DNA from: Schmidtea polychroa
Taxonomy: Eukaryota
Direction of reading: 5' to 3'
Length of the DNA stretch: 64,000 nt
Assembly (NCBI GenBank): GCA_044892525.1
Contig: CM097885.1
Span: 14,076,001-14,140,000, forward strand
Of the stretch, positions 1 to 62,900 are shown piece by piece. The notes under the pieces are model-generated. The model ran no database searches, was not told the origin of the DNA, and saw only the letters and a program-made list of their open reading frames with translations. Position 1 is the first letter of the stretch, and the number at the start of each line of letters is the position of its first letter. The translations under genes and the position numbers were made by a program.

Positions 1-188
1 TTACAATAATTATGCTTGATGAATAAAATTGTGATAATATTAATTGACAAATTCGCATCGTTCTGAATTTTATTTAAATAATCTTTACAAATATAATTCT
101 AAAATACAAAATCAAAATAAAAAAACAGAAAAATAATTTTATTGAAAATATGTCTCGCAATCTCCCTTCAGAAAACCTTTCCAACAAT

Positions 189-817
189 CTACTGAAATGA
201 TTTACAACTCTTCAAGTATTCTGATGATAATTTCCCTGCTGTTTCCAATGCCTCGTACAGTCCATCACCGGAAACTGCACAACATGCCTGCAGGTGCCAT
301 TTGTGAGTGCGCTCCAGTTTCGATAATTCTAACCCTTCCACAATTCTACTTGGTGACATGGCATTTGGTAAATCTTGTTTGTTTGCAATCACCACTATTG
401 GAATCTGAATCAATGTTAAACATTTCAATTTCCTATGAAATCTAGATTTACATTTCTCATCTCGTCACATTCAGCAATCGTAAATAATTCATCTCTTGAT
501 TCCTTCAACCTTTCCACATCATTGCTGTCCACTACATAAATCAATCCATGACAATTCGTATAGTAATGTCTCCATAACTGTCGAATCTTTTCTTGACCTC
601 CCACATCCCAAATTGTGAATTTCAAACCTTTCCCAATTGAAACTTCCTCCACATTGAATCCGATTGTTGGAATCGTTGTCACAGTTTCATTGAGTTTCAA
701 TTTGTACAGAATTGTGGTTTTACCAGCAGCATCCAGTCCCAACATTAGGATTCTCCGAGGATCAGATTGAGACAACTCGTTTAGCAATTTGTATAATCTA
801 CTCAAAAGTATTCCCAT
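189..817 (-). CDS. ARF-family small GTPase (ARF/Arl4-11-14-like), apparently intact, 2 exons, 193 aa
   Basis: Exon 817-452 and exon 404-189 are joined by a 47-nt GT..CAG phase-0 intron (451-405). MG start (Gly2 myristoylation site); motifs [34 protein letters not shown] stop. Confidence 0.93.
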
Positions 818-865
818 TTAATATAATATTGAAATCGAATAATAAAAATCATAGAAAACATTGAG

Positions 866-873
866 TATTTATA
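866..873 (-). promoter_or_regulatory. Putative TATA box of ARF gene
   Basis: TATAAATA on minus strand 49 nt upstream of the ATG; conserved in copy 2 and deleted in copy 3; CCAAT at about 961-965. Confidence 0.45.
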
Positions 874-1021: not shown

Positions 1022-1023
<2 letters not shown>

Positions 1024-1090
<67 letters not shown>

Positions 1091-2712: not shown

Positions 2713-4191
2713 GGTTGGGATGGGTATATTGATGTTTAAAAAGTAAAATATTCATAAATGCTTTTAAGTAAGAGTTACAAATCTATCAGTGACATTAGGA
2801 CGTAGAAACAACACACACGCCAGATTCTGAGTTGTTTGCCAACCGAAACTCTATTACTATCCAAACACCTGTAATTTTGACTTGAACAACCTTCTATTTC
2901 TGATATACCTAAAGAAATTCAGGCTCCAAAATATTATCTTGTACTCTTTCGAGTTAGGATCACCCTGGTTGTCTTATTATCTTATATTTTTCATATCTTC
3001 AAGATTTTAAGATAAATTTCGTTGTTTGTTAAAAAGTAAAATTCATTCATAAAATTTATCATATTTGTTAATTTAAATATATATTTTCTTAAAATCCTTT
3101 TTGTTTAAATAATATTGTATTTGAAAATTTTGCGAATGAAAAAGTGAATAAATTAATGAAATGTTACTTTATTTAATATTAAATCAGGTCACTAGCTCTT
3201 AAAAAGGATCTCAATACAAATGCAAATGGTGGGCGAAGCAATACAGAGTAACTATAGTATTATTATTATTATTATTATATTAACAATAATATTATTAGTA
3301 AATCAGACCCGAGACCTTTAAGAGATCCTAACCCAAATTTCATGAAAGATGCAAAACATAAATTATTTAAAGTAATCCATTTCATTATTAAAAGAAAGCA
3401 CCGATTACCCTAATCGAATCGACATCTCTAATTTTGGTAAACTTACCCAAACAGATGTGAAAGCAATTTTCGAACATTTTATCAGTATTGTTGTTCCGGA
3501 TTTTCGTTTAAATGCCTCACAAATAGCTGCCGAAGATCAAATTTTAAGGCACTAATCAATTTGATATAACACAATTTTAGTATTGCAATTAGGTTTTTTA
3601 CTGCCATTCAGTACAGCAATAATTTCTCCAAAACTCATTAAACATCACCGGCGATTTTCTCGTCAGTTCCACTCGTCATAGGAGCGTTTGATTTGTTGAG
3701 GCGATTTGTCAGCGCTTATATTCGGGTGAATTTTAATTTCATTTCAAATTTTGATTATTTTGATTATAATTATTATTCAAATTAATTTATATTAAATGTT
3801 TTTGATTTAATTATATAATTAATATTATTATGCTGTTGATATTGCAATTGGCAAGTTGCCGTGAGCGCTCCTTGATATAATTTTGATAAAAAGTATAATT
3901 TAAGAGCTTGAATAATGATCTCATATCTATATGGATCAATATTCAAGCCTTAAAGTTTACTTTAAATAAAAATAAATTACTCGAAAGCCATTGGCTAAAT
4001 TCAAAAAGTTAAAATATCTAAATAAAATAGCTAAGTTAAATTCCAAAAAAATTCTTCATAAAGAAGAAAGTTGGTTGTACATACAATTCACTCATCATTC
4101 ACTCCGCAATATAAAATAAAATTATGATATTACTACTTTTAAAAAATGATATGATATTAAAATAAAATAAACTAAGGCCAATATAACCAAT

Positions 4192-4650
4192 TTAATGCGA
4201 CTTTTGTGCCTGTTTTTTATTGGAAAGTAATTGGATATGAGGTTCGAGCTTAGTAACACGTAATTTGAGTTGGCCTTCCAAATGAACATCAGTTATCTGT
4301 GTCTTTAAATCGGTTTTAATTTGTGTTAGATATGAAAAAGTGGATTCGCAACAGTAAGTAGTTCCAAAGCAAGAAAGGGTATTCAGTTGCGTTTCCCCAT
4401 ATTTTCCCATAGGATTGTTCTTTAAATCAAAAAGGGATTTTTAATATTATCTTCACATAACTCAAACAATTCCATCTGTAGTTCGCTCGGCGCCTTTGCG
4501 ATATCAACTAGATGTCGTTCAAATGCTAATTTCATTTCAGAGTCAGAAAACCGTTCAGTATATTCTTCAATTAATGAGTCCACAACAGCAATATAGACAT
4601 CTTGAAATAGGAAAGTCTTTTTTTGGGAAAGTTGATTTTTCACATAAATC
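4192..4650 (-). mobile_element. hAT (Charlie/GTF2IRD2-like) transposase C-terminal remnant
   Basis: FGTTYCCESTFSYLTQIK..ITDVHLEGQLKL..KKQAQKSH, typical hAT dimerisation-domain C-terminus; frameshifted. Confidence 0.8.
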
Positions 4651-5639
4651 TAAAAATGGTGGAAAAATATTAAAATTTTTCTTTAAAAAGTGTATCACAA
4701 TTACAAATCATTATATCAATTCAAATATCAGTTATTATCAAAAATCTGATTAATTATTATTTATTTTACTAATATTTTGTTTTAAATCGTGCGCCAATTA
4801 TTCAGATAACACAATTAATATAATTACTCGGTTATGCAATTTTATATTAACAAGTATGCATTTTTATAGATTTAAAAAAAAATAAAAATTCGAAAAATAA
4901 ATAATAGATTAATAAATAGATTAATAAATAGATTAATAAATAGATTAATAAATTAAGTAAATTAATAAATAAATAGATTATTAAATTAATCACGATAATT
5001 AAGTACGATAACTCATCTATTTTTTATTTATTTATGATTTCATATTGATTTGCTTGAGATATTCCTATCGAATCGGTTTCCTAGGTACTCGGACACAATC
5101 AATCAGATCGAGGATTTCCAAGAGAAATTAGTGAGAAAGCGAGCGCAATTGCAGCAATCGAAATTGGAAATGGAAGAATTTAAACAAACGACCCGATCGA
5201 TGGAGCTCGAGATTGATGACGTGAAATTCCATTTGCAGAAAATATTTGCCGATGTTTATAATATTGTAATTGGTTTATTTGTATTTTTATTTATTATTTA
5301 CTTTACGGATGGAAATTTTGGCGCGATTTCATTGGCTCGCCACTTTGATTTTATTTTGCCGCATCCTAAATTCGATAATATTTGCCCTTAATCGATTATT
5401 TTTTATCAATATTTTACTGATTATTTCAATAATAATCTACATTTTATTAATTTTTTTATTGATTATTTTTTATCCATATTTTATTGATTCATTTTATCCA
5501 TATTTTTATTGATAACCTTTTCTAATTATTTATTAATATTTTTCATTTTTTAATAAACACTTATCAATTATTTTTATTAATAATTTCACTGATTATTTTT
5601 ATCAATATTTTATTAATTATTGAGCGATTGAGGAAATCG

Positions 5640-6430
5640 ATCGTAATCATCACTAGGAAATTATATTCGAATGGTCAGTGAAAGAATGGTAATGTCTAAT
5701 TGTAAAAGCAGGTTAGGAAGTGTAAACAATTGGTTAAAGTTGTCGGGATATCGGTGCAACTTTCAAATTGATGTGCTAAAGTTTACGAGTTATTTAAAAC
5801 GCAAAACAGTTTTGCATTGGAATGTTTAGAAGGGAATAATTAAAGTACGAAATAAAAAAGGATATTTTCTGTTGAATATGCAAAAAATGAATCCAATGAT
5901 GGCCTGAAAATGAAAGCATGAAGATATAAATGCGTTTTAAAGAATTATTTTGAAGAAAATCGAGTAGAATGCAGGAGGAAATTAAAATATACTCCAAATA
6001 AGGCCTGGTAAAGCAAAATTATTTACAATAAAAATAGGTTGAACATGAACAAGAGTTTAGAGATCAAATTCCTGTTAAATGCGAACACATGAAGGTTTTT
6101 AAATCAAATATACTGAAACATGAAAATATGGAGACAATAAATGTTTGGACAATGAAGCTTCAGAGTAGAACGGAAGAGAGAATATTTCAGCGTAATTATA
6201 ATGAAATTAAAACAATTCCGAGTAGATCAGATGAGATTGTGATGGGGAGGAATAGTTGGGGGACGAGTTCGAGAAATAAAATGTAAAGGATGGTAACAAC
6301 AATAATCGAAGGAGATGAAATATTGAGACAAAAGTAGAACTAGCAGAATCGACAAGTTAGAAACCAAAAAACTAAAAAGATAAACGGAAATTAAACTGGA
6401 GTAGCAGGAAGGACAATTCACCATATTATC
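5640..6430 (-). mobile_element. Highly degraded LINE (CR1/L2-like) RT C-terminal remnant in NDC80 intron; second copy about 55158-55948
   Basis: Fragments such as DLLGIV and TRPYLEY (compare LVRPHLEY) in broken frames. Confidence 0.35.
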
Positions 6431-8344
6431 CGATATTAATCCAATAAGTAGTTGTAATTCATACCTGAGAAAATGTGCCTGAATTCAGACAGCTAGTATT
6501 TACATCTGTATAAAATAGTAATATTACTATTCAAATATCATTTATTAAATCAATTTATTATATTAATATCGATTCAATTTGTTATATATTCATGAAATTA
6601 TATTTGTGCTAGAATTTATGTATTAACTTTTATGTTTTCATAATTTTTAATTATCCCCTTGACCTCTCCTGCTCTCCCTTCTTCCTGCAGTTGACAGCGG
6701 CCCCCGTTGAGAAATGATTTCAATAATCATTTATCTAAATCAGAATCGCGATAAATATGCGGAAAACTATTACTCTATATCTGATTACCTAAATTTTATA
6801 GAATCTGCAAGAATTGGAATATTATAAATTCTATATAAAATCAAATGATATGTTTGTCGCAACTAATGGCAAATTTATATCGGGATATCAATTAAAAACC
6901 CCAAAAATAATAATGTACTTACAATCATTTAAAAGATTTATTTACAAAACTTAATCTCTGCAATTAACCCAGTGGCGTCTTCATTTTAAAATTTCTCTTG
7001 TTAACCTTGTATTTGTATTTTCCCATTAAAATTTGACATGTAATTGCCTGTGAAATGATTAATTGTTCCAGTTAGGCCTTAATATTTCATCGTTTTTAAT
7101 AGCAACTGAATGCCGAGCAGAATTTCACAATTCATAACTGATCGAATTCAGCTTACAATTTATTCAATATAGATTATATAAGATTTATAGAGATTTCGAT
7201 AAGATTATTTTATGGCAAAATTCCACAATAATTTTATTCCATCGATAGCACATTTTAACTGCTTCCTTAGCATCACTTTCTCGCTAATCTTGGCTGTTAT
7301 TTGTATAATTTCATGTATTTTTCATACTTACATTTTATATAAAACTGACTTGATAACCAAATCCTCTCATCTTTTGTTATTATAATATTATAATGATTAT
7401 TGTATTATCATTTAATAATCAATATTTTATATGATATAAAATGTTTGGCAATAGCTATTGGAGCTAATATTAATTGTGGATGCTATAATGACAATAATGG
7501 CAAATGACCACCGTACTTTCAAAATAGACTTAGACTTTTTTTTACCTCTCATTTCAGTTCCCAGACTTAGTCAAAGAAGAAATTCGTCAAGAAATCACGG
7601 ATTTTAATTTCGAATATCTGCTAAATTACGATGGTTATTTGCGACCTTATATATCAAACTTGATATCTGTTATTGAAGAGAAGACCCAAATCAGGCGAGA
7701 GGAATTACAGGAACACATAAGACAAAGCGAAGATTTAAAAAGGAACGCTGAAGTTTTGGTATGGGTAAATTGATATAAACCGAAGTTATTTAGTTCATAG
7801 AAAAGTGATATAAAATTGTTGGAATTCGAGAATCGAATAGCTGTCAAGAATTTGAATGAAAATGAGACGATTTGCCTGACATTGTAGGAGGAATCTGCGG
7901 AACATTGTAAAGCCATTCAGAATTTAACGGATCAAGTTGGTCATCATCGCGATCTCAATGATTACATGGATCAGAAACTCGTCGAGATAAAGGTAGGGTT
8001 CAAGAATCAATAAGTCCTAAAGATGTAGAGATTTAGAAGCGATTCGAGGAAGAGAAAAGTACATTTCAGGAAGCAAGTCAATTCTATGAAGTTGATATTG
8101 ATTTGAAGCAAGATTGTGCTGACATTCGACTGCAAAGCCTCCAGGAAAGTCATGATTTTAGAGAATCAGTAATGAAATGGAATACGGCATTATTTGAAGG
8201 AGAAAAAGAAAATAGTAAATCATTTGAAGCTGGCCTAGAAAAGCGCAAAAGAGAACTGATGAAACATTTTACCAAGGAACTTGCAGTAATCGATGAAAAG
8301 TTTAAATTTTGATCTTGTTATTGATGTTACTTTGTTATAATACA

Positions 8345-8917
8345 CAGTGCTCGAAGTGAGGCGGGATAGCCGGGATATTATCCCGGCATTGATTATGTAG
8401 GCGGAATTGCATCCCGGCACTACATTTCATATAATCTATAGGTTTATCCCGGTACTTATTTCATTTTATAGGCACACAAATACTGCAATTAAGGTCACAC
8501 ATAGTACATCCATATATGTATGTATATATATATATTCTTTATTCTCTATTCTCTATTCAATTAAGAATTTCCCAAGCAGCAGTAATGGATAGGTAGGTAT
8601 ATTCTCTTATTTATTTTAGTTAAACCAGCAAGTTGTTTGTTGAGTTATTTATACTGCGACCCCCTCTATATATAATGTGTGCATGATTTCACATGCAGAG
8701 AGCTGTTATAATTAACGTGATAAGAAAACATATATGTGCTACGCAGATATACATACACATGCACATATTGACAATCACAATATGTAAGAGATATGTAAGA
8801 TAGGACCACCCAAAGTTTTGCAACACCCCCAACTGAAAATTTCTGCATAAAAGCCTGGAATCCCGGGTGCCAAAGCATGCCTATCCCGGCACATATTTTG
8901 TTCCACTTCGAGCACTG
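8345..8917. mobile_element. hAT-family MITE, 573 bp
   Basis: 14-bp TIR CAGTGCTCGAAGTG; 8-bp TSD ATAATACA/ATAGTACA; empty site at about 57853-57860; second copy at 61632-62104. Confidence 0.9.
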
Positions 8918-9540
8918 ATAGTACATGTTTCTATTTTTGTTTTTTTTATCATTTACTGAAGCCTTTTTTAATTTATTCACTCAGATTTATTTACAATCTT
9001 TTTAATTAAAAATTATATATAAAATGCTTATTTAGGTGGTTAATAGTGAGTAATTTAATGAGATCATGATGTAAATGTTTTTGAAATAAAAACGTGCTGC
9101 TATCTAGTCAAAATTTGTATAAAAGAAAAGCTGGTAAACAAAATAATATAATAAAAGTTTTTTACATAAAATTCTTAATTTTCCATTTTAAATATATCAT
9201 TAATAAACTACTGATAAATTGTCAATATTATATATTGATTTTATTATATAAGATTTTAGTGGCAAATAAACATTTAGAGTTAGATATGTACACAACCACA
9301 ATAAGATAACGATTGCATATCGTAATTATAAATAAAAAGTTACAAGTAATAATTTAACACCACACTACGTCGATATTTGAATTCAGAGGGTTAGATTTAC
9401 TATAGAAACCCTCTAAGAGTAATATAACTATTTTTTGTTGTGTTGTGTAATAATAAAAATAATAATATTAATTACATCGGATGAAAGAGGAGAATGACAA
9501 TAATTATTACTATTAATCTAATGTAATAAAATAATAAGGC

Positions 9541-13155: not shown

Positions 13156-13242
13156 GCTGGGATGAGCCTCGGCGGTCCGGGGTGAAGGCTTCAAACCTGT
13201 AGGCGGTTGACACCGAAGTAATTCGATTCCACCTTTCCAGCG
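13156..13242 (+). tRNA. tRNA-Sec: Selenocysteine tRNA (anticodon UCA), 87 nt, probably degenerate/pseudogene
   Basis: 9-bp acceptor stem GCTGGGATG/CTTTCCAGC, 6-bp D stem, CTTCAAA loop (TCA 13191-13193), long variable arm, TTCGATTCCAC; colinear with animal tRNA-Sec. TATAAATA at -27 and oligo-T downstream. Mismatches in anticodon stem (A.G) and T stem (GTAA instead of GTGG). Confidence 0.9.
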
Positions 13243-13996: not shown

Positions 13997-14625
13997 CTAC
14001 TGAAATGATTTACAACTCTTCAAGTATTCTGATGATAATTTCCCTGTTGCTTCCAATGCCTCGTACAGTCCATCACCGGAAACTGCACAACATGCCTGCA
14101 GGTGCCATTTGTGAGTGCGCTCCAGTTTCGATAATTCTAACTCTTCCACAATTCTACTTGGTGACATGGCATTTGGTAAATCTTGTTTGTTTGCAATCAC
14201 CACTATTGGAATCTGAATCAATGTTAAACATTTCGATTTCCTATCAAATCTAGATTTACATTTCTCATCTCGTCACATTCAGCAATCGTAAATAATTCAT
14301 CTCTTGATTCCTTCAACCTTTCCACATCATTCCTGTCCACTACATAAATCAATCCATGGCAATTTGTATAGTAATGTCTCCATAACTGTCGAATCTTCTC
14401 TTGACCTCCCACATCCCAAATTGTGAATTTCAAACCTTTCCCAATTGAAACTTCCTCCACATTGAATCCGATTGTTGGAATCGTTGTCACAGTTTCATTG
14501 AGTTTCAATTTGTATAGAATTGTGGTTTTACCAGCAGCATCCAATCCCAACATTAGGATTCTCCTTGGATCAGATTGAGACAACTCGTTTAGCAAATTGT
14601 ATAATATAATCAAAAGTATTCCGAT
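13997..14625 (-). pseudogene. ARF-family GTPase copy 2, start codon lost
   Basis: Colinear with copy 1 (629 nt, intron 14259-14213), but ATG is ATC at 14625-14623 with an in-frame TAA just upstream; VVDSN is changed to VVDRN. Confidence 0.85.
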
Positions 14626-14829: not shown

Positions 14830-15031
<202 letters not shown>

Positions 15032-16729: not shown

Positions 16730-19700
16730 ATGAAAAAGTGAATAAATTAATGAAATGATACATTATTTAATATTAAATCAGGTCACTAGTTCCTATAAAG
16801 GATCTCAATACAAATGCAAATGGGGGGCAAAGCAATACAGAGTAACTATAGTATTATTATTATTATTATATTAACAATAATATTATTAGTAAATCAGACC
16901 CGAGACCTTTAAGAGATCCAAATTTCATGAAAGATGCAAAACATAAATTATTTAAAGTAATCCATTTCATTATTAAAAGAATTCGTAACAGAATTTTATA
17001 GTTTCTAGAAAGCACCGATTACCCTCATCGAATCGACAGCTCTAATTTTGGTAAACTTACCCAAACAGATGTGAAAGCAATTTTCGAACATTTTATCAGT
17101 ATTGTTGTTGCGGATTTTCGTTTAAATGACTCACAAATAGCTGCCGAAGATCAAATTTTACGGCACAAATCAATTTGATATAACACAATTTTAGTATTGC
17201 AATTAGCTGCATTTTACTGCCATTCAGTACAGCAATAATTTCTCCACAACTCATATAACATCAGCGGCGGCTTTCCCGTCAGTTCCACTCGTCATAGGAG
17301 CGTTTGATTTGTTGAGGCGATTTGTCAGCGCTTTTATTCGGGTGAATTTTAATTTCATTTCAAATTTTGATTATTTTGATTATAATTATTATTCAAATTA
17401 ATTTATATTAAATGTTTTTGATTTAATTATATAATTAATATTATTATGCTGTTGATATTGCAATTGGCAAGTTGCCGTGAGCGCTCCGCCACATAGAGCA
17501 GTTACAAATGCAAATCAAACTAATCTATCAGTTATTAATCTATCAAAGGAATTATCACAATAGTTATCTCACATAATAATTCAATAAATCAAATCAATAA
17601 TAATAAGGCAAATCAAAACCCAAAATAAATCAATTTTTATTGAAATCTTTTTTAATTTGTCATAATTTTTCAATTCTGCACCTGAGCAGCAATTTACCAC
17701 TTTTGAATCGAGCGAATGATTTTTGATGGGTGCAAGCATTTCTTTTTCATCTCATCAATTTGCTGTTGACATTTTGATTCAATCTGCCGAATTTCATTGG
17801 CGCATTTCACCATTTCAAGCTGCAGCTGAATCTCAAATTCAAACATTTAAATAAATCAATAATTCACCTTTTCATTCCCCTGTTGCAGCCGCTGCTCGCA
17901 TTTCTCTTTCATCTCATCAATTTGCTGTTGACATTTAGATTCAATCGCCTCAATTTGCTGCCTGACCTGCTTTGCATTAATAATAAATCAAATCAATAAT
18001 CAAACTTGATTGATTGATCCAATATTTGTCTCCATCTCCATTCTCAATGAGCGATTCTCATTCTTCAATGCCACCATTTCCTCATTCAATTCTTCTATTG
18101 ATAATTGATAATTTTTATTGATAATTTCATTACGCAATGTCACATTCTCGTCTCTCATTGCTTGCATCTCATTGCATAGATTACTGATCTGATCGATCAA
18201 TAATTTGCTATGGCCTTCATTATTCTCATTGAGATGGACTTTCATTTCGTCCTTATCCACCTCATTCATTTCGCATCCAATTCTATTGAATGGACATTTT
18301 ATTGGTTGCTTGTTGCATGTTCTCATGTGGCTTTCCATCACCTCTAATTCATCTTTGAATTGACAATTTTGCATTGGGCATCTCACTATCACTTCTGAAA
18401 TCCTTAAATTGGCTGCATGATCTTCAGAAACATCTTTATTGAAATTTATCATTTTCTTTCCACAATGTTTTCCTGCTCCTGGACAGAATTTATCTTTTCC
18501 ATCCAAATAATGTTCAATGCAATCAGAACAAAAGCGACAACCGCAAGGAGCTTGGCAAGCTTTTATCATTAAACACTTGCAAATTCTGCATATCAATTCA
18601 TTGCTGATTTCATTATCAAATTCAAATTTATTCCTCTTCATTATTTCCCATACACTTGCAAACATTTTATCTAAAATTAACAAAATTATAAAAATATTTC
18701 AACATTTTACAACATTCATAAATCATACTTATTATATTAATTATTTCCTCTGACGTTGACAATTTCAATATTTATAATTTGTATTTTGATGTAGATAAAC
18801 AAACATTTTATAAATATTGTATTTTAGCTTGAAATATTGTTAATGCTAATTTTTAGTGTTTTTCTCATTTATTTTAAATTTTACAAAATTATTTAAATTA
18901 TAATTTTATAACGAAATGTAAAATTTTAACATTTTTAACGGCAAACACAAATTAAAAATATATCAAAATATAAAATTAGATATTTTTCATAAAATATTAA
19001 AATATTGATCTAATGATTTCGTTATGGTTACACATATTTGTCTCACATTTTCTGATGTGTACAAGTTTCCTGTGAGCCCCATATTGACATTGTCACATTT
19101 TATTGTGCACAAAGCAATACTGATAAATTGGATTAGATTTAACACAATAAAAATTAAATTTTAACGAATTTTTGTATGATTTAATGAAATCTGTGATCGG
19201 TGCAGGGCCTAATTGACACGTAATTTTAATTGATTCTATCCATTGCAGTTCACTGTCCTGGTGCATGTAATGGTGGATGTGCTGGGGAATGTGCTGGGGA
19301 ATGTGCTGGGGAATGTGATGGATATATCTGCCTTTTCAATTTATTATTAATGCTAATGATAATAAATAATAATAATAATTTTAAATGACCCCGCTAAATT
19401 CAGACCGATCCTAAAATGCTTTTCCCGAGAATTATGAGTTATCGTATCTGCTCAGAAGTCGTTTTGGATTCTTTGATTTCCATTTACCGGACAATTGAAA
19501 ACGCTGAATTCAACGCTAATAATCTAATTGAACTTCAGGATGCCATTCGATACGAAATGGGAATCATATCAAGCAGTGAAATCATGAAAATCTCTCAGAA
19601 TGTCGACCAAATCGAAGAGATGCAAACGAATGTTCAACTCCTTGAATGCACTATCAGAGAAATCCGAGGAATCCAATCGAATTGACAATTGCATTGAGAC

Positions 19701-44732: not shown

Positions 44733-44896
44733 AAATTGTGATAATATTAATTGACAAATTTGCATCGTTCTGAATTTCATTTAAATAAATTTTTACAAAT
44801 ATAATTCAAAAATACAAAATCAAAATAAAAAAACAGAAAAATAATTTTATTGAAAATATGTCTCGCAATCTCCCTTCAGAAAACCTTTCCAACAAT

Positions 44897-45514
44897 CTAC
44901 CGAAATGATTTACAATTCTTCAAGTATTCTGATGATAATTTCCCTGCTGCTTCCAATGCCTCGTACAGTCCATCACCAGAAACTGCACAACATGCCTGCA
45001 GGTGCCAATTGTGAGTGCGCTCCAGTTTCGATAATTCTAACCCTTCCACAATTCTACTTGGTGACATGGCATTTGGTAAATCTTGTTAGTTTGCAATCAC
45101 CACTATTGGAATCTGAATCAATGTTAAACATTTCAATTTCCTATCAAATCTAGATTTACATTTCTCATCTCGTCACATTCAGCAATCGTAAATAATTCAT
45201 CTCTTCATTCCTTCAACCTTTCCACATCATTGCTGTCCACTACATAAATCAATCCATGACAATTCGTATAGTAATGTCTCCATAACTGTCGAATCTTCTC
45301 TTGACCTCCCACATCCCAAATTGTGAATTTCAAACCTTTCCCAATTGAGATTTCCTCCACATTGAATGCGATTGTTGGAATCGTTGTCACAGTTTCATTG
45401 AGTTTCAATTTGTATAGAATTGTGGTTTTACCAGCAGCATCCAATCCCAACATTAGGATTCTCCTTGGATCAGATTGAGACAACTCGTTTAGCAATTTGT
45501 ATAATCTACTCAAA
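44897..45514 (-). pseudogene. ARF-family GTPase copy 3
   Basis: 88-bp deletion (TCAAA microhomology) removes ATG, 5' UTR and TATA; TCA to TGA nonsense at 45207-45205; IGFN changed to IAFN; intron 45159-45113 retained. Confidence 0.92.
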
Positions 45515-45641: not shown

Positions 45642-45857
<216 letters not shown>

Positions 45858-50361: not shown

Positions 50362-51322
50362 TGTTGGCACGGGTATATTGATGATAACATAGTAAAATAT
50401 TCATAAATGCTTTTAAGTAAGAGTTGATTACAAATCTATCAGCGACTCTAGGATATGGAAACAACACACATTCCAGATTCTGAGTTAACTGCCAACAGAA
50501 ACTCTATTAATATCCAAAAATCTGTAATCTTGACTTGAACAACCTTTTACTTCGGATGAACCTAACGAAATTCAGGTTCCAAAATATTTTCTTGTACTCT
50601 TTCGAGATCCACCTGGTTGTCTTATTATCTTATATTTTTCATATCTTCAGGATTTCAAGATAAATTTCGTTGTTTGTTAAAAAGTAAAATTCATTCATAA
50701 AATTTATCATATTTGTGAATTTAAATATAAATTTTCATGAAATCTTATTTGTTTAAATAATATTGTATTTGAAAATTTTGCGAATGAAAAAGTGAATAAA
50801 TTAATGAAATGTTACTTTATTTAATATTAAATCAGGTCACTAGCTCTTAAAAAGGATCTCAATACAACTGCAAATGGTGGGCGAAGCAATACAGAGTAAC
50901 TATAGTATTATTATTATTATTATATTAACAATAATATTATTAGTAAATCAGACCCGAGACCTTTAAGAGATCCAAATTTCATGAAAGATGCAAAGCATAA
51001 ATTATTCAAAGTAATTCATTTCATTATTAAAAGAATTCGTAACAGAATTTTATAGTTTCTAGAAAGCACCGATTACCCTCATCGAATCGACAGCTCTAAT
51101 TTTGGTAAACTTACCCAAACAGATGTGAAAGCAATTTTCGAACATTTTATCAGTATTGTTGTTCCGGATTTTCGTTTAAATGCCTCACAAATAGCTGCCG
51201 AAGATCAAATTTGATGATGATGATGATGACCACAATAATAATCTCATATAATAAATATAATAGAAAAAGGCAAACAGTAAAACAAATCAAAACCCAAAAT
51301 AAATCAATTTTTCTTTAATTTG

Positions 51323-52806
51323 TCATAATTTTTCGATTCTGCGCCTGAGCAGCAATTTATCACTTTTGTCTGCTAATTGATAGATTGATCTGTCATCACC
51401 AATAGAATAATAACTGGCAATTGGATTATTTTTGTCATCTAACGGTTTCCCCCATCCGACATCATCAAACCAACCTGAATATTTTATTGACTTGCTCATA
51501 TAAATGCTGCCATTTGCTGGATCGATCACATCGATTGTCACGGATTGTTTGAACGGCCAATCCAATTGCTCATCATTTGCCCCACGCATCAAACAGAAAC
51601 CAGCAAACACCCAATCATCCCCAATGCTCACCCACAAGCACATTTTGTAACCGATTGGCCCCGAATAAAATGTGTCGCTGTAAATATCTTCTCTTCTCTT
51701 TTGTTGTGAAAATTTATCGATTTGCCATTCAAAAAATCCATAATTTCTATATTTTTCATTCCCTTGTCGCTCGCATTTCTCTTTCATCTCATCAATTTCC
51801 TGTTGACATTTTGATTCAATCTGCCGAATTTCATTGGCGCATTTCGCCATTTTAAGCTGCAACTGAATCTCAAATTCAAACATTTCAATAAATCACCTTT
51901 TTATTCCCCTGCTGAAGCCGCTGCTCGCATTTCTTTTTCATCGCATCAATTTGCTGTTGGCATTTTGATTCAATCTGCCGTATTTCATTGGCGCATTTCG
52001 CCATTTCAAGCAGCAACTGAATCTTAAATTCAAACATTTCAATAAATCAATAAATCACCTTGTCATTCTTCTGTTGCAGCCGCTGCTCGCATTTCTCTTT
52101 CATCTCATCAATTTGCTGTTGACATTTTGATTCAATCACATCAATTTGCTGTCTGATCTGCTTTGCATCAATAATAAATCAAATCAATAATCAAACTTGA
52201 TTGATTGATCCAATATTTGTCTCCCTCTCCATTCTCAGTGAGCGATTCTCATTCTTCAATGCCACCATTTCCTCATTCAATTCTTCTATTTCTCCTCTGT
52301 TCTCCGCCTCTTTCTTTTCTATATTGCACAATTTCACCTACAATCACAGATATCAATTAAATTAATTACAAATACAATTTTACAATTTCGTTTTTATCCA
52401 CCTCATTCATTTCGCATCCAATTCTATTGAATGGACATTTTATTGGTTGCTTGTTGCATGTTCTCATGTGGCTCTCCATCACCTCTAATTCATCTTTGAA
52501 TTGACAATTTTGCATTGGGCATCTCACTATCACTTCTGAAATCCTTAAATTGGCTGCATGATCTTCAGAAACATCTTTATTGAAATTTATCATTTTCTTT
52601 CCACAATGTTTTGCTGCTCCTGGACAGAATTTCTCTTTTCCATCCAAATAATGTTCAATGCAATCAGAACAAAAGCCACAACCGCAAGGAGCTTGGCAAG
52701 CTTTTATCATTAAACATTTGCAAATTCTGCATATCAATTCATTGCTGATTTCATTATCAAATTCAAATTTATTCCGCCTCATCATTTCCCATACGTTTCC
52801 AAACAT
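51323..52806 (-). CDS. TRAF-family protein copy B: RING, zinc finger, coiled coil, MATH/TRAF-C (about 440 aa)
   Basis: ATG 52806; exons 52806-52384, 52337-52197, 52160-52059, 52022-51897, about 51862-51323, with all introns phase 0 GT-AG. MATH motifs FEWQIDKF, FYSGPIGYKMCL, LMRGANDEQLDWPF. Confidence 0.88.
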
Positions 52807-53490
52807 TTTATCTAAAATTAATAAAATTATCAAAATATTTCAACATTTTACAACATTCATAAATCATACTTATTATATTAATTACCTTGACAATTTCAAT
52901 ATTTATAATTTGTATTTTGATGTAGATAAACAAACATTTTATAAATATTGTATTTTAGCTTTAAATATTGTTAATGCTAATTTTCAGTGTTTTTCTCATT
53001 TATTTTAAATCTTACAAAATTATTTAAATTACAATTTGATAACGAAATGTAAAATTTTAACATTTTTAACGGCAAACACAAAATAAAAATATATCAAAAT
53101 ATAAAAATAAATATTTTTCATAAAATATTAAAATATTGATCTAATGATCTCGTTATGGTTACCAATATTTGTCTGGCATTTTCTGATGTGTACAAGTTTC
53201 CTGTGAGCCCCATATTGACATTTTCACATTTTATTGTGACAAAGGTGCAATGATTAAATATAAAATTATAAAATGTCAAATGCACAAAGCAATACTGATA
53301 AATTGGATTAGATTTAACACAATAAAAATTAAATTTTAACTAATTTTTTGTATGATTTTATGAAATCTTTAATCGGTGCAAGGCCTAATTGACACGTAAT
53401 TTTAATTGATTCTATCCAATCTTATTGCAGTTCACATTGCTGGTACATGTGATGGATATATCTGCCTTATCAATTTATTATTAATGCTAA

Positions 53491-53660
<170 letters not shown>

Positions 53661-54368
53661 AATTTTAAACGACCCCGCTACAATCAGACCGATTCTAAAA
53701 TGCTAAATTTTCTAATTTCATTCATTTCAAAAATATTTTTCGTATGAGTAGTAAAAAGTTAGATTAGTAAATAGATTAATAAATAAAATATTAAATAGAT
53801 TAACAAATAATTTATTGAATAAATAGAATTAATAGGTAGATTAATTAATTAATAAATAGATAAATAAATTAATAAATAGATTAATGAATAAATTAATTAT
53901 TAAATAGATAGATTAATAAATAATTTTATAAATAATTTAATGAATAAATAAATTAATAAATTGATTAATAAATAAATTAATAGAATAAATAAATTAATAA
54001 AAATATTAATAAATAGTTTATTAAATTAATCAAAAAACAGATAAATAAATTATTTTTACTTTTATTTATTTCACTCATTTATTTTTTTATTTTCTCTTTC
54101 TCTATTTTGACCTTTTCTACTTTTCATTTCTCACTCTGCTTTATTTATATTATCCAAATTGCTTTCGATTTTTTTAATTCTTGTAGTAATTTCTGAAAAA
54201 TTGCAAAACTTATCTGGCAGCTAATTCAGCCTCCAAACATTTAATGGAGAATTAGTAAATTAGATTTAGAATTATTTTTAATTATTTAAAAATAAAAAAA
54301 ATCTGAAATTAATTGTTAATTTTTTAGTTTAGAATAATAATTTATAAAAATAATTTAATTGCTAATGA

Positions 54369-54521
54369 AATGGTCAATATATGCAGTTGTTGCTAAGGAA
54401 TTGGTCATTATATGCAGTGGTTGCTAAGGAATTGGTCATTATATGCATTGGTTGCTACGGAATTGGTCATTATATGCATTGGTTGCTACGGAATTGGTCA
54501 TTATATGCTTTGGTTGCTAAG
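54369..54521. repeat. 31-bp minisatellite, 5 units
   Basis: Unit AATTGGTCATTATATGCATTGGTTGCTA(A/C)GG, head-to-tail. Confidence 0.9.
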
Positions 54522-57500
54522 AGGAAATTAGGTCCACAAAATCAAGCACGATAACTCATCTATTTTTTATTTATTTATGATTTCATATTGATTTGCTTGA
54601 GATATTCCTATCGACTCGGTTTCCTAGGTACTCGGACACAATCAATCAGATCGAGGATTTCCAAGAGAAATTAGTGAGAAAGCGAGCGCAATTGCAGCAA
54701 TCAAAATTGGAAATGGAAGAATTTAAACAAACGACCCGATCGATGGAGCTCGAGATTGATGACGTGAAATTCCATTTGCAGAAAATATTTGCCGATGTTT
54801 ATAATATTGTAATTGGTTTATTTGTATTTTTATTTATTATTTACGTTACGGATGGAAATTTTGGCGCGATTTCATTGGCTCGCCACTTTGATTTTATTTT
54901 GCCGCATCCTAAATTCGATAATATTTGCCCTTAATCGATTATTTTTTATCAATATTTTATTGATTATTTCAATAATAATCTACATTTTATTAATTTTTTT
55001 ATTGATTATTTTTTATCCATATTTTATTGATAACCTTTTCTAATTATTTATTAATATTTTTCATTTTTTAATAAACACTTATCAATTATTTTTATTAATA
55101 ATTTCACTGATTATTTTTATCAATATTTTATTAATTATTGAGCGATTGAGGAAATCGATCGTAATCATCACTAGGAAATTATATTCGAATGGTCAGTGAA
55201 AGAATGGTAATGTCTAATTGTAAAAGCAGGTTAGGAAGTGTAAACAATTGGTTAAAGTTGTCGGGATATCGGTGCAACTTTCAAATTGATGTGCTAAAGT
55301 TTACGAGTTATTTAAAACGCAAAACAGTTTTGCATTGGAATGTTTAGAAGGGAATAATTAAAGTACGAAATAAAAAAGGATATTTTCTGTTGAATATGCA
55401 AAAAATGAATCCAATGATGGCCTGAAAATGAAAGCGTGAAGATATAAATGCGTTATAAAGAATTATTTTGAAGAAAATCGAGTAGAATGCAGGAGGAAAT
55501 TAAAATATACTCCAAATAAGGCCTGGTAAAGCAAAATTATTTACAATAAAAATAGGTTGAACATGAACAAGAGCTTAGAGATCAAATTCCTGTTAAATGC
55601 GAACACATGAAGGTTTTTAAATCAAATATACTGAAACATGAAAATATGGAGACAATAAATGTTTGGACAATGAAGCTTCAGAGTAGAACGGAAGAGAGAA
55701 TATTTCAGCGTAATTATAATGAAATTAAAACAATTCCGAGTAGATCAGATGGGATTGTGATGGGGAGGAATAGTTGGGGGACGAGTTCGAGAAATAAAAT
55801 GTAAAGGATGGTAACAACAATAATCGAAGGAGATGAAATATTGAGACAAAAGTAGAACTAGCAGAATCGACAAGTTAGAAACCAAAAAACTAAAAAGATA
55901 AACGGAAATTAAACTGGAGTAGCAGGAAGGACAATTCACCATATTATCCGATATTAATCCAATAAGTAGTTGTAATTCATACCTGAGAAAATGTGCCTGA
56001 ATTCAGACAGCTAGTATTTACATCTGTATAAAATAGTAATATTACTATTTAAATATCATTTATTAAATCAATTTATTATATTAATATCGATTCAATTTGT
56101 TATATATTCATGAAATTATATTTGTGCTAGAATTTATGTATTAACTTTTATGTTTTCATAATTTTTAATTATCCCCTTGACCTCTCCTGCTCTCCCTTCT
56201 TCCTGCAGTTGACAGCGGCCCCTGTTGAGAAATGATTTCATTAATCATTTATCTAAATCAGAATCGCGATAAATATGCGGAAAACTATTACTCTATATCT
56301 GATTACCTAAATTTTATAGAATCTGCAAGAATTGGAATATTATAAATTCTATATAAAATCAAATGATATGTTTGTCGCAACTAATGGCAAATTTATATCG
56401 GGATATCAATTAAAAACCCCAAAAATAATAATGTACTTACAATCATTTAAAAGATTTATTTACAAAACTTAATCTCTGCAATTAACCCAGTGGCGTCTTC
56501 ATTTTAAAATTTCTCTTGTTAACCTTGTATTTGTATTTTCCCATTAAAATTTGACATGTAATTGCCTGTGAAATGATTAATTGTTCCAGTTAGGCCTTAA
56601 TATTTCATCGTTTTTAATAGCAACTGAATGCCGAGCAGAATTTCACAATTCATAACTGATCGAATTCAGCTTACAATTTATTCAATATAGATTATATAAG
56701 ATTTATAGAGATTTCGATAAGATTATTTTATGGCAAAATTCCACAATAATTTTATTCCATCGATAGCACATTTTAACTGCTTCCTTAGCATCACTTTCTC
56801 GCTAATCTTGGCTGTTATTTGTATAATTTCATGTATTTTTCATACTTACATTTTATATAAAACTGACTTGATAACCAAATCCTCTCATCTTTTGTTATTA
56901 TAATATTATAATGATTATTGTATTATCATTTAATAATCAATATTTTATATGATATAAAATGTTTGGCAATAGCTATTGGAGCTAATATTAATTGTGGATG
57001 CTATAATGACAATAATGGCAAATGACCACCGTACTTTCAATAGACTTGGACTTTTTTTTACCTCTCATTTCAGTTCCAAGGCTTAGTCAAAGAAGAAATT
57101 CGTCAAGAAATCACGGATTTTAATTTCGAATATCTGCTAAATTACGATGGTCATTTGCGACCTTATATATCAAACTTGATATCTGTTATTGAAGAGAAGA
57201 CCCAAATCAGGCGAGAGGAATTACAGGAACACATAAGACAAAGCGAAGATTTAAAAAGGAACGCTGAAGTTTTGGTATGGGTTAATTGATATAAACCGAA
57301 GTTATTTAGTTCATAGAAAAGTGATATAAAATTGTTGGAATTCGAGAATCGAATAGCTGTCAAGAATTTGAATGAAAATGAGACGATTTGCCTGACATTG
57401 CAGGAGGAATCTGCGGAACATTGTAAAGCCATTCAGAATTTAACGGATCAAGTTGGTCATCATCGCGATCTCAATGATTACATGGATCAGAAACTCGTCG

Positions 57501-58325
57501 AGATAAAGGTAGGGTTCAAGAATCAATAAGTCCTAAAGATGTAGAGATTTAGAAGCGATTCGAGGAAGAGAAAAGTACATTTCAGGAAGCAAGTCAATTC
57601 TATGAAGTTGATATTGATTTGAAGCAAGATTGTGCTGACATTCGACTGCAAAGCCTCCAGGAAAGTCATGATTTTAGAGAATCAGTAATGAAAGGGAATA
57701 CGGCATTATTTGAAGGAGAAAAAGAAAATAGTAAATCATTTGAAGCTGGCCTAGAAAAGCGCAAAAGAGAACTGATGAAACATTTTACCAAGGAACTTGC
57801 AGTAATAGATGAAAAGTTTAAATTTTGATCTTGTTATTGATGTTACTTTGTTATAATACATGTTTTTATTTTTGTTATTTTATCATTTACTGAAGCCTTT
57901 TTTAATTTATTAACTCAGATTCATTTACAATTTTTTTAATTAAAAATTATATATAAAATTTTTATTTAGGTGGTTAATAGTGAGTAATTTAATGAGATCA
58001 TGATGTAAATGTTTTAGAAATAAAAACGTGATGCTATCAGTCAAAATTTGTATAAAAGTAAAGCTGGTAAACAAAATAATATAATAAGTTTTTTACATAA
58101 AATTCTTAATTTTCTATTTTAAATATATCATTAATAAACTACTGATAAATTGTCAATATTATATATTGATTTTATTATATAAGAATTTATAGTGGCAAAT
58201 AAACATTTAGAGTTAGATATGTACACAGCCACAATAAGATAACGATTGCATAATTTAACACCACACTTCGTCGATATTTGAATTCAGAGGGTCAGATTTA
58301 CTATAGAAACGCTCTAAGAGTAATA

Positions 58326-60829
58326 CACCTAATTCTGTTTTTACGCGATAGATACGTTCCCCGAAAATACGCGTAAAAAAATTCGCGTTAAAAAAGATAT
58401 GGTGTCCATATAAAAGTAGAGGATTGGTTCTTCATTTCCAAAATCAACTAAAATAATGTGATTAAAGTATACAAATTCATTGTTTTTACGTGTTTTATAC
58501 ACTTTTTAATTAATTAAATATATATTTATGAATAAAATAACGAAAAAAAATACTAATTTAACAAAAAAAATTCATTATTTAACAAAAAATTCATTTTAGT
58601 AAAACAAAAAGTGGCAAAATATATCATTAAACATATTTCTATTGCTGTCACTTCCTGATGATATACGTATTCGTTTACGTGAGACTTGAACGCCACAATC
58701 ACTGTCATCACTAGAAATATTTTCCACTTCATTTTCATGTTGAAGTGGTGTTGATGTTTTAGCGGTTCTAGTCAAAAATTCAGTAATCAATTGTTGTGGT
58801 CTGGGTTTGATAATGCTGTTATGTAATTCGCGATAATTTCCCATTAATAATTTCACGTTGAAATTTCCGAGCTCTTTCCTCAATAGGATCATGCTTGCCA
58901 AATGATCGCTTAATTTAGCTGCTAGTTAAAGTCCTTCTTTAATTAGATCTGCGGTGAGGGTAGGAACCTCTACGTCGTCATCTTCGCTAATTTCTTGCAC
59001 ATCAGGTGTCTCAAGCGCAAAAGCAATGATTTCATCACTGCTAAGTACCGTATCCACTAATAGTTCTTCTATATCTGCAGACGATAGATCATCAAAACCT
59101 TCTCCGCCTACTTCATGAGCTAAGGCTATGATATTGCTAAACTCGACTGCATTAGAAGGTATCGGATCTTTATTTTTGACGCATTCCGTTCCAACATGCG
59201 TTTAAAGTTGATGGTTTTAGTTCGGATAGCGCTAATCCAGCATGTTTGATGCAGTCATTAATAGAAAATTTCTTCCACGCGTCCATAACTTTTAAATTGT
59301 CATCATTCAGTAATTGATCTAAAATATACCGGAATGTTTGCTTAACATAATAGGTTTTAAAGGTTGCTATAATTCCTTGATCCAGTAGTTGTATCAACGA
59401 AGTAGTATTGGGTGGCAAAAAACAAAATTCGACATTTGGATGCTCCATATGGGGATGACCTGGTGCGTTGTCTATAATCAACAGAACCTTGAATTCAAGA
59501 CCTTTATCGCTCATATAGCGGCGAACTTCTGGGACAAAATTTTTGAGGAACCACTCCTTAAAAGTCTCAGTTGTCACCCAAGCTTTTTTATTAGCTGTCC
59601 AGTGAACTGGCAATGTACTGAAATTTACACCTTTCATTGACCGTGGTTTTAGAGCTCGATTTACAAGTTAAGGTTTTAGCATTCGATCTCCTGAAACGTT
59701 AGAACAAAATAAAAAGGTCACACGATCCTTGACTACTTTAAACCCACTTGCAATTTTTTGGGATTTAGCTACGTATGTTCTGCTCGGCATTCGTTTCCAG
59801 AAAAGGCCGGTTTCATCTGCATTCCATACCTGATCAGCAGTGTAGCCACCTTCTTCAATTATTTTAGCCAATTTTTGGGGAAATTCTTTGGCTGCTAATT
59901 CACCCCTAATTTTTATATTATGCAGCGCGCTGCCTTAGCAGATAACCTGTCACCCAACCTGTACTTGCAGGAAATTCAATTTTTTTATCTCTCTGGCCTG
60001 ATGTTTGTGGTTCCATTTCTTTCATCTGCTTATAGATCCGTAATGCCATCTGCTTTATGCCATTTCCGTCAACTGGTATTCGTTTTTGTGAGTAATCCTC
60101 CATCCATATTACAAGAGCCTTCTCCATTTTCTCTTTTACAATGTCTCTTGTGTATGATGATGTATGAGCACTCATATTTGTTCCAGCAATCACAGGTTTT
60201 CTGATAGCTTCTTCATTTTTTTATTGTTCTTATGGTAGATTCTTTTAAATTAAAATATTTTCCTACACAAATGGCACCTTCTTCAGTGGCTAGTCTATCC
60301 AAAATTTTGATTTTAACTTCCAAAGAAATAGCTTTTCTATTCGTTTGTTTTTTAGCTGACATTGTTAATTGTAATGAGGTCCCTATAAAAATAATTTATT
60401 TGCAGGTAATAAATAAATGCACTTCAAATTATAAATTACCGTTAATTGAATTCAGGAATTGTATAAATCTCTTGATAAAATCTTCAAACGCAATTGATAC
60501 CAAATTTGGATTGGTATTTTATACTAAAACACCTATTATAACACCTATTATCGAATAACTTTAAAATGTGAATGTAAATATTTTAGTTTTCTCACCTCAG
60601 AATTTTGATTATTGTACATACATTAAAATAGAAATTGTTTTAAACCTAAACTACAAATTAGCAGTAAACTATAAAGAATTATGTACATACATGTACATAC
60701 ATGTTTTTTCTTGTTAAAAAAATGAATTTTTTTTAAGCGCGTTAAATCAAATCAAATCGCGTAAAAACAGAACGAAATAATTTTTTTGAATCGCGTTAAA
60801 TCAAATTCGCGTAAAAACAGAATTAGGTG
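58326..60829 (-). mobile_element. pogo/Tigger-family DNA transposon, full length (2504 bp), transposase disrupted
   Basis: 23-bp TIR CACCTAATTCTGTTTTTACGCGA; TA TSD; empty site at about 9423-9424. Transposase from ATG 60362 with WNADETGLFWK, LIIDNAPGH, LPPNTTSLIQLLDQGII; stops and frameshifts. Confidence 0.95.
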
Positions 60830-60947
60830 TATAACTATTTTTTGTTGTGTCGTGTAATAATAAAAATAATAATATTAATTACATCAGATGAAAGAGGAGA
60901 ATGACAATAATTATTACTATTAATCTAATGTAATAAAATAATAAGGC

Positions 60948-62900
60948 AAGTGGCGTCGCTAAGCGGGTGAGGACCGAACCGGCTGACACCAAATGAAAAA
61001 AATTGCAAATTTTACAGAGCAGACGTTGCTCGGTTCAGTCGTATTTCATAAGTGGATAACCGATTATAGTTAAATAAATATATGACTAAAAGGCATAACT
61101 GGGCCTGAATGTCACCTTGGAGTTTGCAGAACATCGTTGGCTCATTTTAATGAGATTCAGGGCTGGTATGATCAAACTTTGAAGTTATTTACGAACGCGA
61201 TAATTAACCAGGTAGAATAGATCAATAGACTTGAAAGATTTTCCATAGGCCGAGTGCTTGTGTTGTGACAAAGCAAGATGAAAAGGCTTAAAAAGACATG
61301 CGCAAGTTAACCAAACAATGGTTCTACATGATGATGACTTGTAGTGCATATACAGTAAAACCATTCGTTATTTACTTTTCACCAGAAACGTAAAATCAAT
61401 TTATAAATGTCTTGGCAAATCAAGTAAATGAGATTCTTGTCAAAGATAAAAAAACTGCAAGGTATTTTGGAATTATGTTCGAGAGCACACATGACATATA
61501 ACACCCTGACCAGATGTTTGAGGTTATCAGGTATGTGAAAATCCACAATGGGAAAGTTGAAGTAAAAGAAGTGTTCCACGGATTTTTCCCTTTAAGCGGG
61601 ATAAAGCTGATGACCTCATTTCTGATATTCTCAGTGCTCGAAGTGAGGCGGGATAGCTGGGATATTATCCCGGCATTGATTATGTAGGCGGAATTGCATC
61701 CCGGCACTACATTTTATATAATCTATAGGTTTATCCCGGTACTTATTTCATTTTATAGGCACACAAATACTGCAATTAAGGTCACACATAGTACATCCAT
61801 ATATGTATGTATATATATATATATTCTTTATTCTCTATTCTCTATTCAATTAAGAATTTCCCAAGCAGCAGTAATGGATAGGTAGGTATATTCTCTTATT
61901 TATTTTAGTTAAACCAGCAAGTTGTTTGTTGAGTTATTTATACTGCGACCCCCTCTATATATAATGTGTCTATATATAAAATTTGTTGGACACCCCCCAA
62001 AGTTTTGCAACACACCCAACTGAAAATTTCTGCATAAAAGCCTGGAATCCCGGGTGCCACAGCATGCCTATCCCGGCACATATTTTGTTCCACTTCGAGC
62101 ACTGGATATTCTTACAAATCTAAAACGCGACGGACTTGACATAATGATGTGCAGAGCTCAAGGCTACGAAATGCTGCAACAATGTGCGGAATCCATGGAG
62201 GTGTTAAAGCCATTCTGAAAAGAAATAATAAGTAAGCGATTTTTATTGGGTGCGTGGACCATTAAGTAAACTTGTGTGGCCTACACTCTTTTGCCAACAA
62301 TGCTTCTAGCGTTACATTTTTTGGTACTCTTGAGAGAATATTTTCATTCTTTGCTGCTTACACTCATCGATGGGATGTTTTGATTGAACACACTGGGATG
62401 TTGGTGAAAATGTTGTCAACAACACGTCGGAGTGCTCATTATGCTGCTGTTAAGTCAGTGAAAAATAAATTTGATGAATGTATAGCGGCGACTGAAGCTC
62501 TATGTGATATTATTGAAAATCTGGACACAAGGGGTACAGTACAACGTCTTTTACATGCGGTCGGTGATTTCACGTTTATCTGCTACCTTTACCTCTCAGC
62601 TGATCTACTTGAGCAAGTCCATCTTACTCAGCAGAACCCTCAGACTAAAGGCTTAACTCTTGACAAATTTGTGATTAGGTTTCTGTACGAGAAACGCAGT
62701 CTCTTAGTTGAGCATGCAATTGATTAGGCACTTTTAAAATCAGACCAATATGAAATTTGGGTAGAAAGAAGATTAAGGTTCAAGAAGAGAATGGTGGGGG
62801 AACAACTGAGAGACGTTGGACTTTCTGCGAGAAGAAAACAGTAGGGAGATGCTGAAATGTATTGATCCTTTTCATTAGGAACTCCTGATGAGATCAAGAA
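60948..62900 (+). mobile_element. hAT (ZMYM1-like) element remnant with degraded transposase; right end uncertain
   Basis: AGTGGCGTCGCT left end; VIRYVKI..EVFHGF, CRAQGY, CVDH*VNLCG, HRWDVL, LSTTR; interrupted by a MITE. Confidence 0.8.
61632..62104. mobile_element. hAT MITE, second copy (473 bp, internally deleted)
   Basis: TIR CAGTGCTCGAAGTG; perfect 8-bp TSD GATATTCT. Confidence 0.92.

Follow-up and report, generated by a model that had tools for sequence, protein, structure and literature searches.

In nematodes and plants, F-box and MATH-BTB proteins reportedly change rapidly in the domain that binds substrate. They form unstable families of ubiquitin-ligase adaptors, for which a role in pathogen defence has been hypothesised (PMC1866355). 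Planarians carry an expansion of TRAF/MATH genes, hundreds in number, with RING, zinc finger, coiled coil and MATH domains and expressed as a family (PMC6109357, PMC7586133). For the gene encoding selenocysteine tRNA (tRNA-Sec), a single copy is the usual assumption; in a survey that warns of artefacts with identical flanks, copies with compensating changes are listed for three eukaryotes, never more than four, and nine undisrupted predictions for a diatom (PMC5330540). Here we describe a locus of Schmidtea polychroa at which TRAF genes lie antisense inside copies of the kinetochore gene NDC80, beside copies of tRNA-Sec and of a gene for an ARF-family GTPase. The stretch analysed (the window) comprises 64,000 nucleotides, C1:14,076,001-14,140,000, where C1 is contig CM097885.1 of this 781-Mb, AT-rich animal genome, and 584 kb around it were also examined.

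These TRAFs resemble those of the planarian papers in their domain set. Those papers, in the portions available, count transcripts; the genomic arrays, the nesting in NDC80, the remnants and the selection analysis belong to the present locus (PMC6109357, PMC7586133). Unlike in the families of nematodes and plants, a single TRAF polypeptide here contains both RING and MATH, and the array has drawn in the essential kinetochore gene NDC80 together with tRNA-Sec and ARF. The TRAF-C fold and domain order are those of vertebrate TRAF2, TRAF3, TRAF5 and TRAF6, whereas R393, Y395 and the serine triad, fixed in vertebrate TRAF1, TRAF2, TRAF3 and TRAF5, have variable equivalents in this family (PMC6125299). 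As in other genomes with several tRNA-Sec genes, more than one apparently functional copy coexists with pseudogenes, but, unlike the genomes surveyed, this one has five identical bodies with clearly diverged flanks among 16 copies (PMC5330540). Searches of titles and the beginnings of abstracts in the open-access literature for TRAF expansion and NDC80 in planarians, Schmidtea TRAF tandem clusters and hitchhiking of nested genes returned nothing on this locus.

We put at roughly two in three the probability that the units described below arose by segmental duplication of the one NDC80 locus that is complete, and that this locus became prone to duplication after a TRAF inserted into it, with the TRAFs evolving by birth and death and purifying selection holding on to one NDC80 and several tRNA-Sec and ARF copies. 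The home cluster contains ten NDC80-bearing units over 330 kb (C1 13.91-14.24 Mb), three of them in the window. A single one of the ten NDC80 copies is complete, at C1 14,194,618-14,203,067 on the minus strand, 54 kb beyond the window; its model has ten open exons encoding 569 amino acids, eight GT-AG introns and one GC-AG intron, with a plausible three-codon start exon 44 bp upstream, predicted from the sequence. Exons e4-e5 occur almost exclusively in this copy. Loss is reciprocal: the TRAF inside the complete NDC80 carries a stop, and open TRAFs adjoin broken NDC80s. Three exon queries against the genome found no more distant NDC80 paralogue.

Evidence that pieces of NDC80 have travelled with TRAF comes from beyond this cluster. 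The exon encoding the NDC80 CH domain has 58 matches, comprising nine in the cluster, 48 elsewhere on C1 (2.5-16.7 Mb) and one on a small contig. Of the 48 distant remnants, 35 are placed tail-to-tail with one of the listed TRAFs, and the distance is in most cases the nested spacing of about 1.35 kb; in 2000 trials of random placement such pairs averaged 0.47 and never exceeded 4. Counted from the TRAF side, 35 of the 83 listed TRAFs on this arm outside the cluster have a CH exon, and a search at the DNA level finds more. The TRAFs adjoining distant remnants have RING and MATH exons that are mostly open. At six distal places an exon from the other side of the TRAF has been kept as well, which implies that the founding duplicate had NDC80 on both sides of its TRAF. 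Identity to the intact NDC80 is 77-88% for distant remnants and 91-100% at home, and a tree of 39 remnants resolves three geographic clades (support 100/99, 95/84 and 100/99): the home cluster and two distant groups, at 2.5-9.3 Mb and at 15.5-16.7 Mb.

The family of the nested TRAF has at least 184 matches (150 of 1,616 candidates were scored), mostly at C1 2-17 Mb and 258-268 Mb. A tree was built from 82 of them, with sampling that was not random, remnant-bearing copies being chosen on purpose and one partial RING match left out. The 70 sampled copies of the arm clade form one clade against 12 others (100/100), and on that deliberate sampling 40 of the 70 carry an NDC80 remnant; none was found in the 12 outgroup TRAFs. 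An origin of the entire 2-17 Mb clade from the nested TRAF was rejected by comparison of 3' flanks. Of the 27 arm TRAFs without a remnant that were assessed, 11 cluster in this comparison with 7 of the 11 outgroup TRAFs, and the remnant-bearing copies do not. Nine of those 11 share the outgroup flank directly, over 266-830 bp at 78-88% identity, so the flank without NDC80 would be the older state and the NDC80 context derived. The flank comparison indicates that a TRAF entered an NDC80 intron and that roughly half of the TRAFs on the arm descend from it as a sub-lineage.

Substitution patterns were compared among 38 distinct arm TRAFs, a set that excludes copies with stops or no detectable MATH, three copies with frameshifted ends and duplicates with identical MATH. 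The ratio of nonsynonymous to synonymous divergence (dN/dS) is 1.56 in MATH (95% confidence interval 1.11-2.24) and 0.28 in RING plus zinc finger. Within MATH, over 12 disjoint pairs, the proportion of nonsynonymous differences (pN, 0.080) exceeds that of synonymous ones (pS, 0.050; Fisher p 0.002), and pN is greater than pS in 11 of the 12. Codon models, in which recombination is not included, give an omega of 2.4-2.5 for MATH versus 0.37-0.38 for RING (likelihood-ratio test, 61.8), and 4.8 at ten positions mapped to TRAF2 receptor hot spots versus 2.2 elsewhere. The predicted MATH structure (predicted local distance difference test, pLDDT, 79) matches the fold of TRAF2, TRAF3 and TRAF6 with a template-modelling score (TM-score) of about 0.7, and its beta strands show variable residues in alternation. 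The equivalents of R393 and Y395 of TRAF2, which are receptor hot spots (PMC6125299), are among the most variable positions in the alignment, taking 7 and 10 different residues. Across the hot-spot equivalents of the TRAF1/2/3/5 class, these TRAFs are variable and do not show R, Y and S-S-S. The family displays the pattern of diversifying birth and death (many clustered copies, pseudogenes, and, in models without recombination, an omega that exceeds 1 in the binding domain while staying below 1 in the scaffold). Judged by these ratios, TRAF is a gene under diversifying selection, with dN/dS in MATH highest at the predicted peptide-binding face.

A number of observations weigh against this interpretation. 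Of the ten positions mapped to hot spots, three are conserved, and the placement of the C-terminal ones, made in part from TRAF2 numbering and a weak alignment (E 1.7), is tentative. Synonymous divergence in MATH, at 0.05-0.09, is below the 0.10-0.27 of RING, which suggests gene conversion, a process able to inflate omega. The TRAF and remnant trees conflict for three copies, and the outgroup TRAFs all come from this one genome. Of the seven home-cluster TRAFs, only two have their full length, which is 469 amino acids in the one modelled; three near-identical copies, including that of window unit 3, have an in-frame deletion (440 amino acids), one, in window unit 2, lacks MATH, and one has the stop mentioned above, so the youngest wave was possibly largely neutral. 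Five ARF-only and four tRNA-only copies show that the region duplicates without TRAF too. Transcript evidence comes from sequencing runs that are presumed to be RNA by their GT..AG joints, none being on record as such. TRAF-family contigs in these runs have GT..AG joints at the modelled exon borders, and none of the listed pieces, all below 200 nt, is traceable to one particular nested copy. In two studies the principal NDC80 contigs still contain the GC-AG intron whose removal the intact model requires, so the fully spliced NDC80 message is a prediction of that model; contigs drop rarer forms.

From the copy map, the lesions, the co-location, the trees and the substitution ratios we infer an order of events, a cause of amplification and an immune function. 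A member of an already expanding TRAF family would have inserted antisense into the fourth intron of NDC80, after which the locus would have become prone to duplication. Two old waves would then have carried TRAF with pieces of NDC80 to 2.1-9.3 Mb and 15.5-16.7 Mb, where these would have re-amplified locally and the NDC80 pieces decayed to their present 77-88% identity. A recent wave of direct and inverted duplications at the home cluster, where identity is still 91-100%, would have copied tRNA-Sec and ARF as well. Each TRAF is predicted to act as a RING ubiquitin ligase or an adaptor, its substrate-binding face being variable, and selection would retain copies that offer new MATH binding specificities. 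Purifying selection, in turn, would retain one NDC80, the one whose own TRAF is dead, together with several copies of tRNA-Sec and of ARF. The youngest local wave may have been neutral or driven by dosage.

The alternative that survives best confines itself to that recent wave, and holds that selection on the dosage of tRNA-Sec and/or ARF drove it, with TRAF and NDC80 as passengers there; compatible with older TRAF-driven waves, it is possible and nonetheless improbable in our estimation. There are 16 tRNA-Sec copies, all within 0.8 Mb, of which seven are identical at 79.2 bits (Rfam RF01852). They have the UCA anticodon and the G after the acceptor stem (G73), and ARAGORN calls SeC(tca) for four copies in the two loci scanned. 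Five of the seven identical bodies sit in flanks that are 4.6-9% apart, with 0 body differences against 4-8 expected per pair, and on this comparison of bodies and flanks tRNA-Sec has not simply decayed; purifying selection likely keeps several copies. ARF has 15 copies at 95% identity or above, eight of them intact (one in the gap duplicate described below) and under purifying selection, with a pN/pS of 0.26. The proteins have an Arf domain, an N-terminal MG and G-box motifs, and their closest named relatives are ARF-like proteins of spiralian invertebrates, at 64-75%. A spliced ARF contig, which also speaks for dosage, matches a stand-alone copy at 14.33 Mb at four of five diagnostic letters, and both genes have clusters without NDC80 or TRAF: four tRNA-only copies together at 14.43 Mb and five ARF-only copies, all within 14.33-14.43 Mb. 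Nine of the 16 tRNA-Sec and 7 of the 15 ARF copies are, however, mutated or broken; gene conversion limited to the body could imitate purifying selection; and the 48 distant NDC80 remnants, which follow TRAF, are left unexplained by dosage.

Some further features of these two genes were noted. Codon 80 of ARF (window 578-580, minus strand), next to switch II and equivalent to Pro76 of ARF1, encodes Q, R, P or L among the eight otherwise constrained intact copies, which makes the codon a possible diversifying site. Older ARF/ARL paralogues, at 73%, 68% and 47% identity, lie at C1:14341637, 14419990 and 14421400, which places the ARF array before the recent wave. Weak Rfam matches to tRNA-Sec elsewhere proved, in the three places checked, to be tRNA-Ser(GCT) arrays, which are long tandem arrays with a period of about 324 bp at C1 60.25 Mb and on contigs C871 and C98.

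A neutral rearrangement hot spot would account for the region by mechanical duplication through palindromes, microsatellites and retroelements, with all genes as passengers and intact copies reflecting youth or gene conversion. In favour of this account, the units of the home cluster occur in both orientations, including palindromic pairs, and have variable breakpoints, large retroelement and other insertions split them (one unit by a 35-kb insert), duplications of ARF or tRNA-Sec alone exist, and most home-cluster TRAFs are damaged. Decay has nevertheless been unequal. MATH has an omega above 1, RING is at 0.3-0.4, ARF at 0.26, tRNA bodies are invariant against diverged flanks and one NDC80 in ten is complete; distant remnants, moreover, persist beside TRAFs in which most RING and MATH exons have stayed open. 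We regard a purely neutral origin as unlikely, at perhaps one chance in five.

That the units are uncollapsed haplotypes or other assembly artefacts is very improbable as a general explanation, and plausible in places. A 31-kb direct duplicate across a 500-N gap (C1:14202686-14265171) differs by a single mismatch and is probably a false duplication. A 57-kb duplicate containing window unit 3, with 83 mismatches in 56.5 kb, is suspiciously young and may reflect an assembly error. The remaining units are 2-16% apart, with private deletions and insertions, and variants diagnostic of different units occur in DNA contigs from two studies, one run of which may be the source of the assembly. The three units of the window are real segmental duplicates. 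A large mobile element of which the unit is cargo can be set aside almost entirely, because units lie in both orientations with variable ends (upstream of tRNA-Sec, the point at which shared sequence ends varies between about 25 and more than 400 bp), their content varies, no transposase or polymerase is common to them, all tRNA-bearing copies fall within 0.8 Mb and the TRAFs keep their introns.

Seen against these results, the initial annotation was right that NDC80 hitchhikes and decays and that TRAF is a selected gene. Neither of the outcomes it had named as fatal, an assembly artefact or equal neutral decay of all four genes, was found. Its view of tRNA-Sec as a decaying passenger does not hold for the seven identical copies, their bodies unchanged despite 5-9% flank divergence, or sit easily with the four tRNA-only copies. 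Nor is a four-gene module supported as the unit of selection, ARF and tRNA-Sec having also been amplified separately and the wide spread being that of TRAF with an NDC80 fragment; mobile-element cargo, which it had offered as an alternative, founders on the variable ends.

Within the window, self-BLAST aligns the three colinear units (<1-9990, 13108-20170 and 42485-61400) at 84-98% identity across kb-long blocks, and Pfam and Rfam confirm the gene families that had been read from the sequence at the outset (Pfam matches are to Arf, zf-TRAF, RING and MATH). The repeated unit proposed there is real, as are its different lesions in each copy of ARF, tRNA-Sec, TRAF and NDC80. It is not a simple tandem module, at least ten units being arranged in both orientations, and the nested TRAF attributed to every unit is missing from unit 1.

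Unit 1 has an intact ARF gene at 189..817 on the minus strand, encoding 193 amino acids (Pfam Arf, E 3e-46), with an intron at 405-451 across which a contig from a presumed-RNA run joins 404 to 452. Its intact tRNA-Sec lies 1 kb upstream of the window start. Its NDC80 pseudogene (3188..8312, plus strand) retains exons e0-e3 and e6-e9, with the e2 acceptor deleted and stops in e3 and e8, and is without e4-e5 and the nested TRAF. An insertion specific to this unit at 8345..8943 has a related copy at 61632-62104, and the insertion-free form is present in a DNA run. Both of the window's own tRNA-Sec copies are mutated. That of unit 2 (13156..13241, plus strand) is a likely pseudogene, scoring 55.3 bits in Rfam against 79.2 for intact copies, with four substitutions in the anticodon, variable and T arms. 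The ARF copy of unit 2 (13997..14625, minus strand) has lost its start codon, and its NDC80 pseudogene (16782..19887, plus strand) consists of e0-e5 only, with no 3' half, a +2 frameshift in e3 and a -2 frameshift in e4. Antisense in an intron of the latter lies a TRAF (17694..18665, minus strand) with RING, zinc finger and coiled coil, open over 296 amino acids, from which MATH has been deleted.

The tRNA-Sec of unit 3 (42565..42650, plus strand) is degenerate and falls below the Rfam gathering score, and its ARF pseudogene (44896..45513, minus strand) has a 5' deletion plus a stop. The NDC80 pseudogene (50836..57828, plus strand) retains e0-e2 and e6-e9, the three exons e3-e5 being deleted. 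The antisense TRAF within it (51323..52806, minus strand) has five exons open over 440 amino acids, an in-frame deletion of about 45 amino acids after the zinc finger and a complete MATH, which matches TRAF2 and TRAF3 in the PDB at E about 2e-9. A single protein combines RING, zf-TRAF, coiled coil and MATH, as seen from Pfam and from the 469- and 440-amino-acid gene models. A Tigger/Tc5-like DDE transposon remnant (58335..60829, minus strand; Pfam DDE_1 and HTH_Tnp_Tc5) is present in unit 3 only and corresponds to a gap in the alignment of units 1 and 3.

The assignment of NDC80 draws on several searches. NDC80/HEC1 proteins are about 600 amino acids long, with an N-terminal calponin-homology (CH) domain and, towards the C terminus, a long coiled coil that has a loop, and they localise to kinetochores together with NUF2, SPC24 and SPC25. 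The Ndc80_HEC profile (Pfam PF03801) scores above cut-off at eight places in the genome, two of them inside the window. For the CH domain, human HEC1 (E 0.38) is the sole PDB hit when E values up to 1 are admitted; the CH exon alone has no meaningful PDB match. Searches for protein homologues of the CH exon and of the TRAF RING exon returned no relatives, a HMMER search of cluster representatives gave only three unrelated repeat proteins, and an Atlas search gave coiled-coil look-alikes only, at 0.76 or below. Searched separately, the 3' exons hit generic coiled-coil families or nothing, and it is a spliced contig that connects them to the CH exons. In this presumed-RNA contig of 1,186 nt, 485 nt separate the CH exons from exon e6, and the intron that bears TRAF is absent. 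It keeps the GC-AG intron and has the +2 form of e3 known from broken copies, and contigs of the second study do likewise, so that the majority NDC80 transcript looks like a pseudogene type. Contig depth was not taken as copy number or expression, and the fact that one run does not cover the 3' exons of NDC80 was given no weight. The intron after the CH exon (window 3549-3592) has a GC donor in every NDC80 copy that keeps it, old or young.

Other sequences occur among the units. Between units 2 and 3, at 33769-41740 of the window, lie decayed Gypsy-like pieces (zinc knuckle, protease, reverse transcriptase and RNase H by Pfam) and further reading frames. A separate 1.7-kb duplication relates 22864-24541 to 31797-33564 at 91%, and a lone fragment of TRAF 5' flank is found at 31147-31790. 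Beyond the window, the 35-kb insert contains reading frames of 2,561 and 2,542 amino acids, at C1:14155368 and 14169410, and clusters of long frames (600-1,300 amino acids), including an inverted pair, occur at C1:14265200-14295000 and 13990000-14016000.

A more far-reaching picture can be offered tentatively, since we think it rather improbable as a whole. Inside cells, the TRAFs might constitute a repertoire akin to antibodies, made up of ubiquitin ligases whose MATH grooves are hypervariable. About half of the repertoire on one arm would then derive from one copy in an NDC80 intron, with the locus still shedding new TRAFs. Such a picture would embrace the reciprocal loss and a selected multi-copy tRNA-Sec, and abundant transcripts of antisense, intron-retaining NDC80 fragments might regulate TRAFs or NDC80.

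The planarian TRAF expansion and the instability of ligase-adaptor families were already known; what is new is a birth-and-death array that has engulfed the essential NDC80. Relative to the tRNA-Sec survey (PMC5330540), five or more conserved genes would rank among the highest counts in animals. In practical terms, RNA interference against NDC80 in this animal, or its annotation, must tell one gene from about 57 fragments. Those same remnants serve as a lineage tag by which part of an unexplained planarian-type TRAF expansion can be ordered and traced, and the hypervariable MATH face provides a direct handle on what these TRAFs bind. The locus shows the survival of an essential, normally single-copy gene within what would be a birth-and-death immune array.

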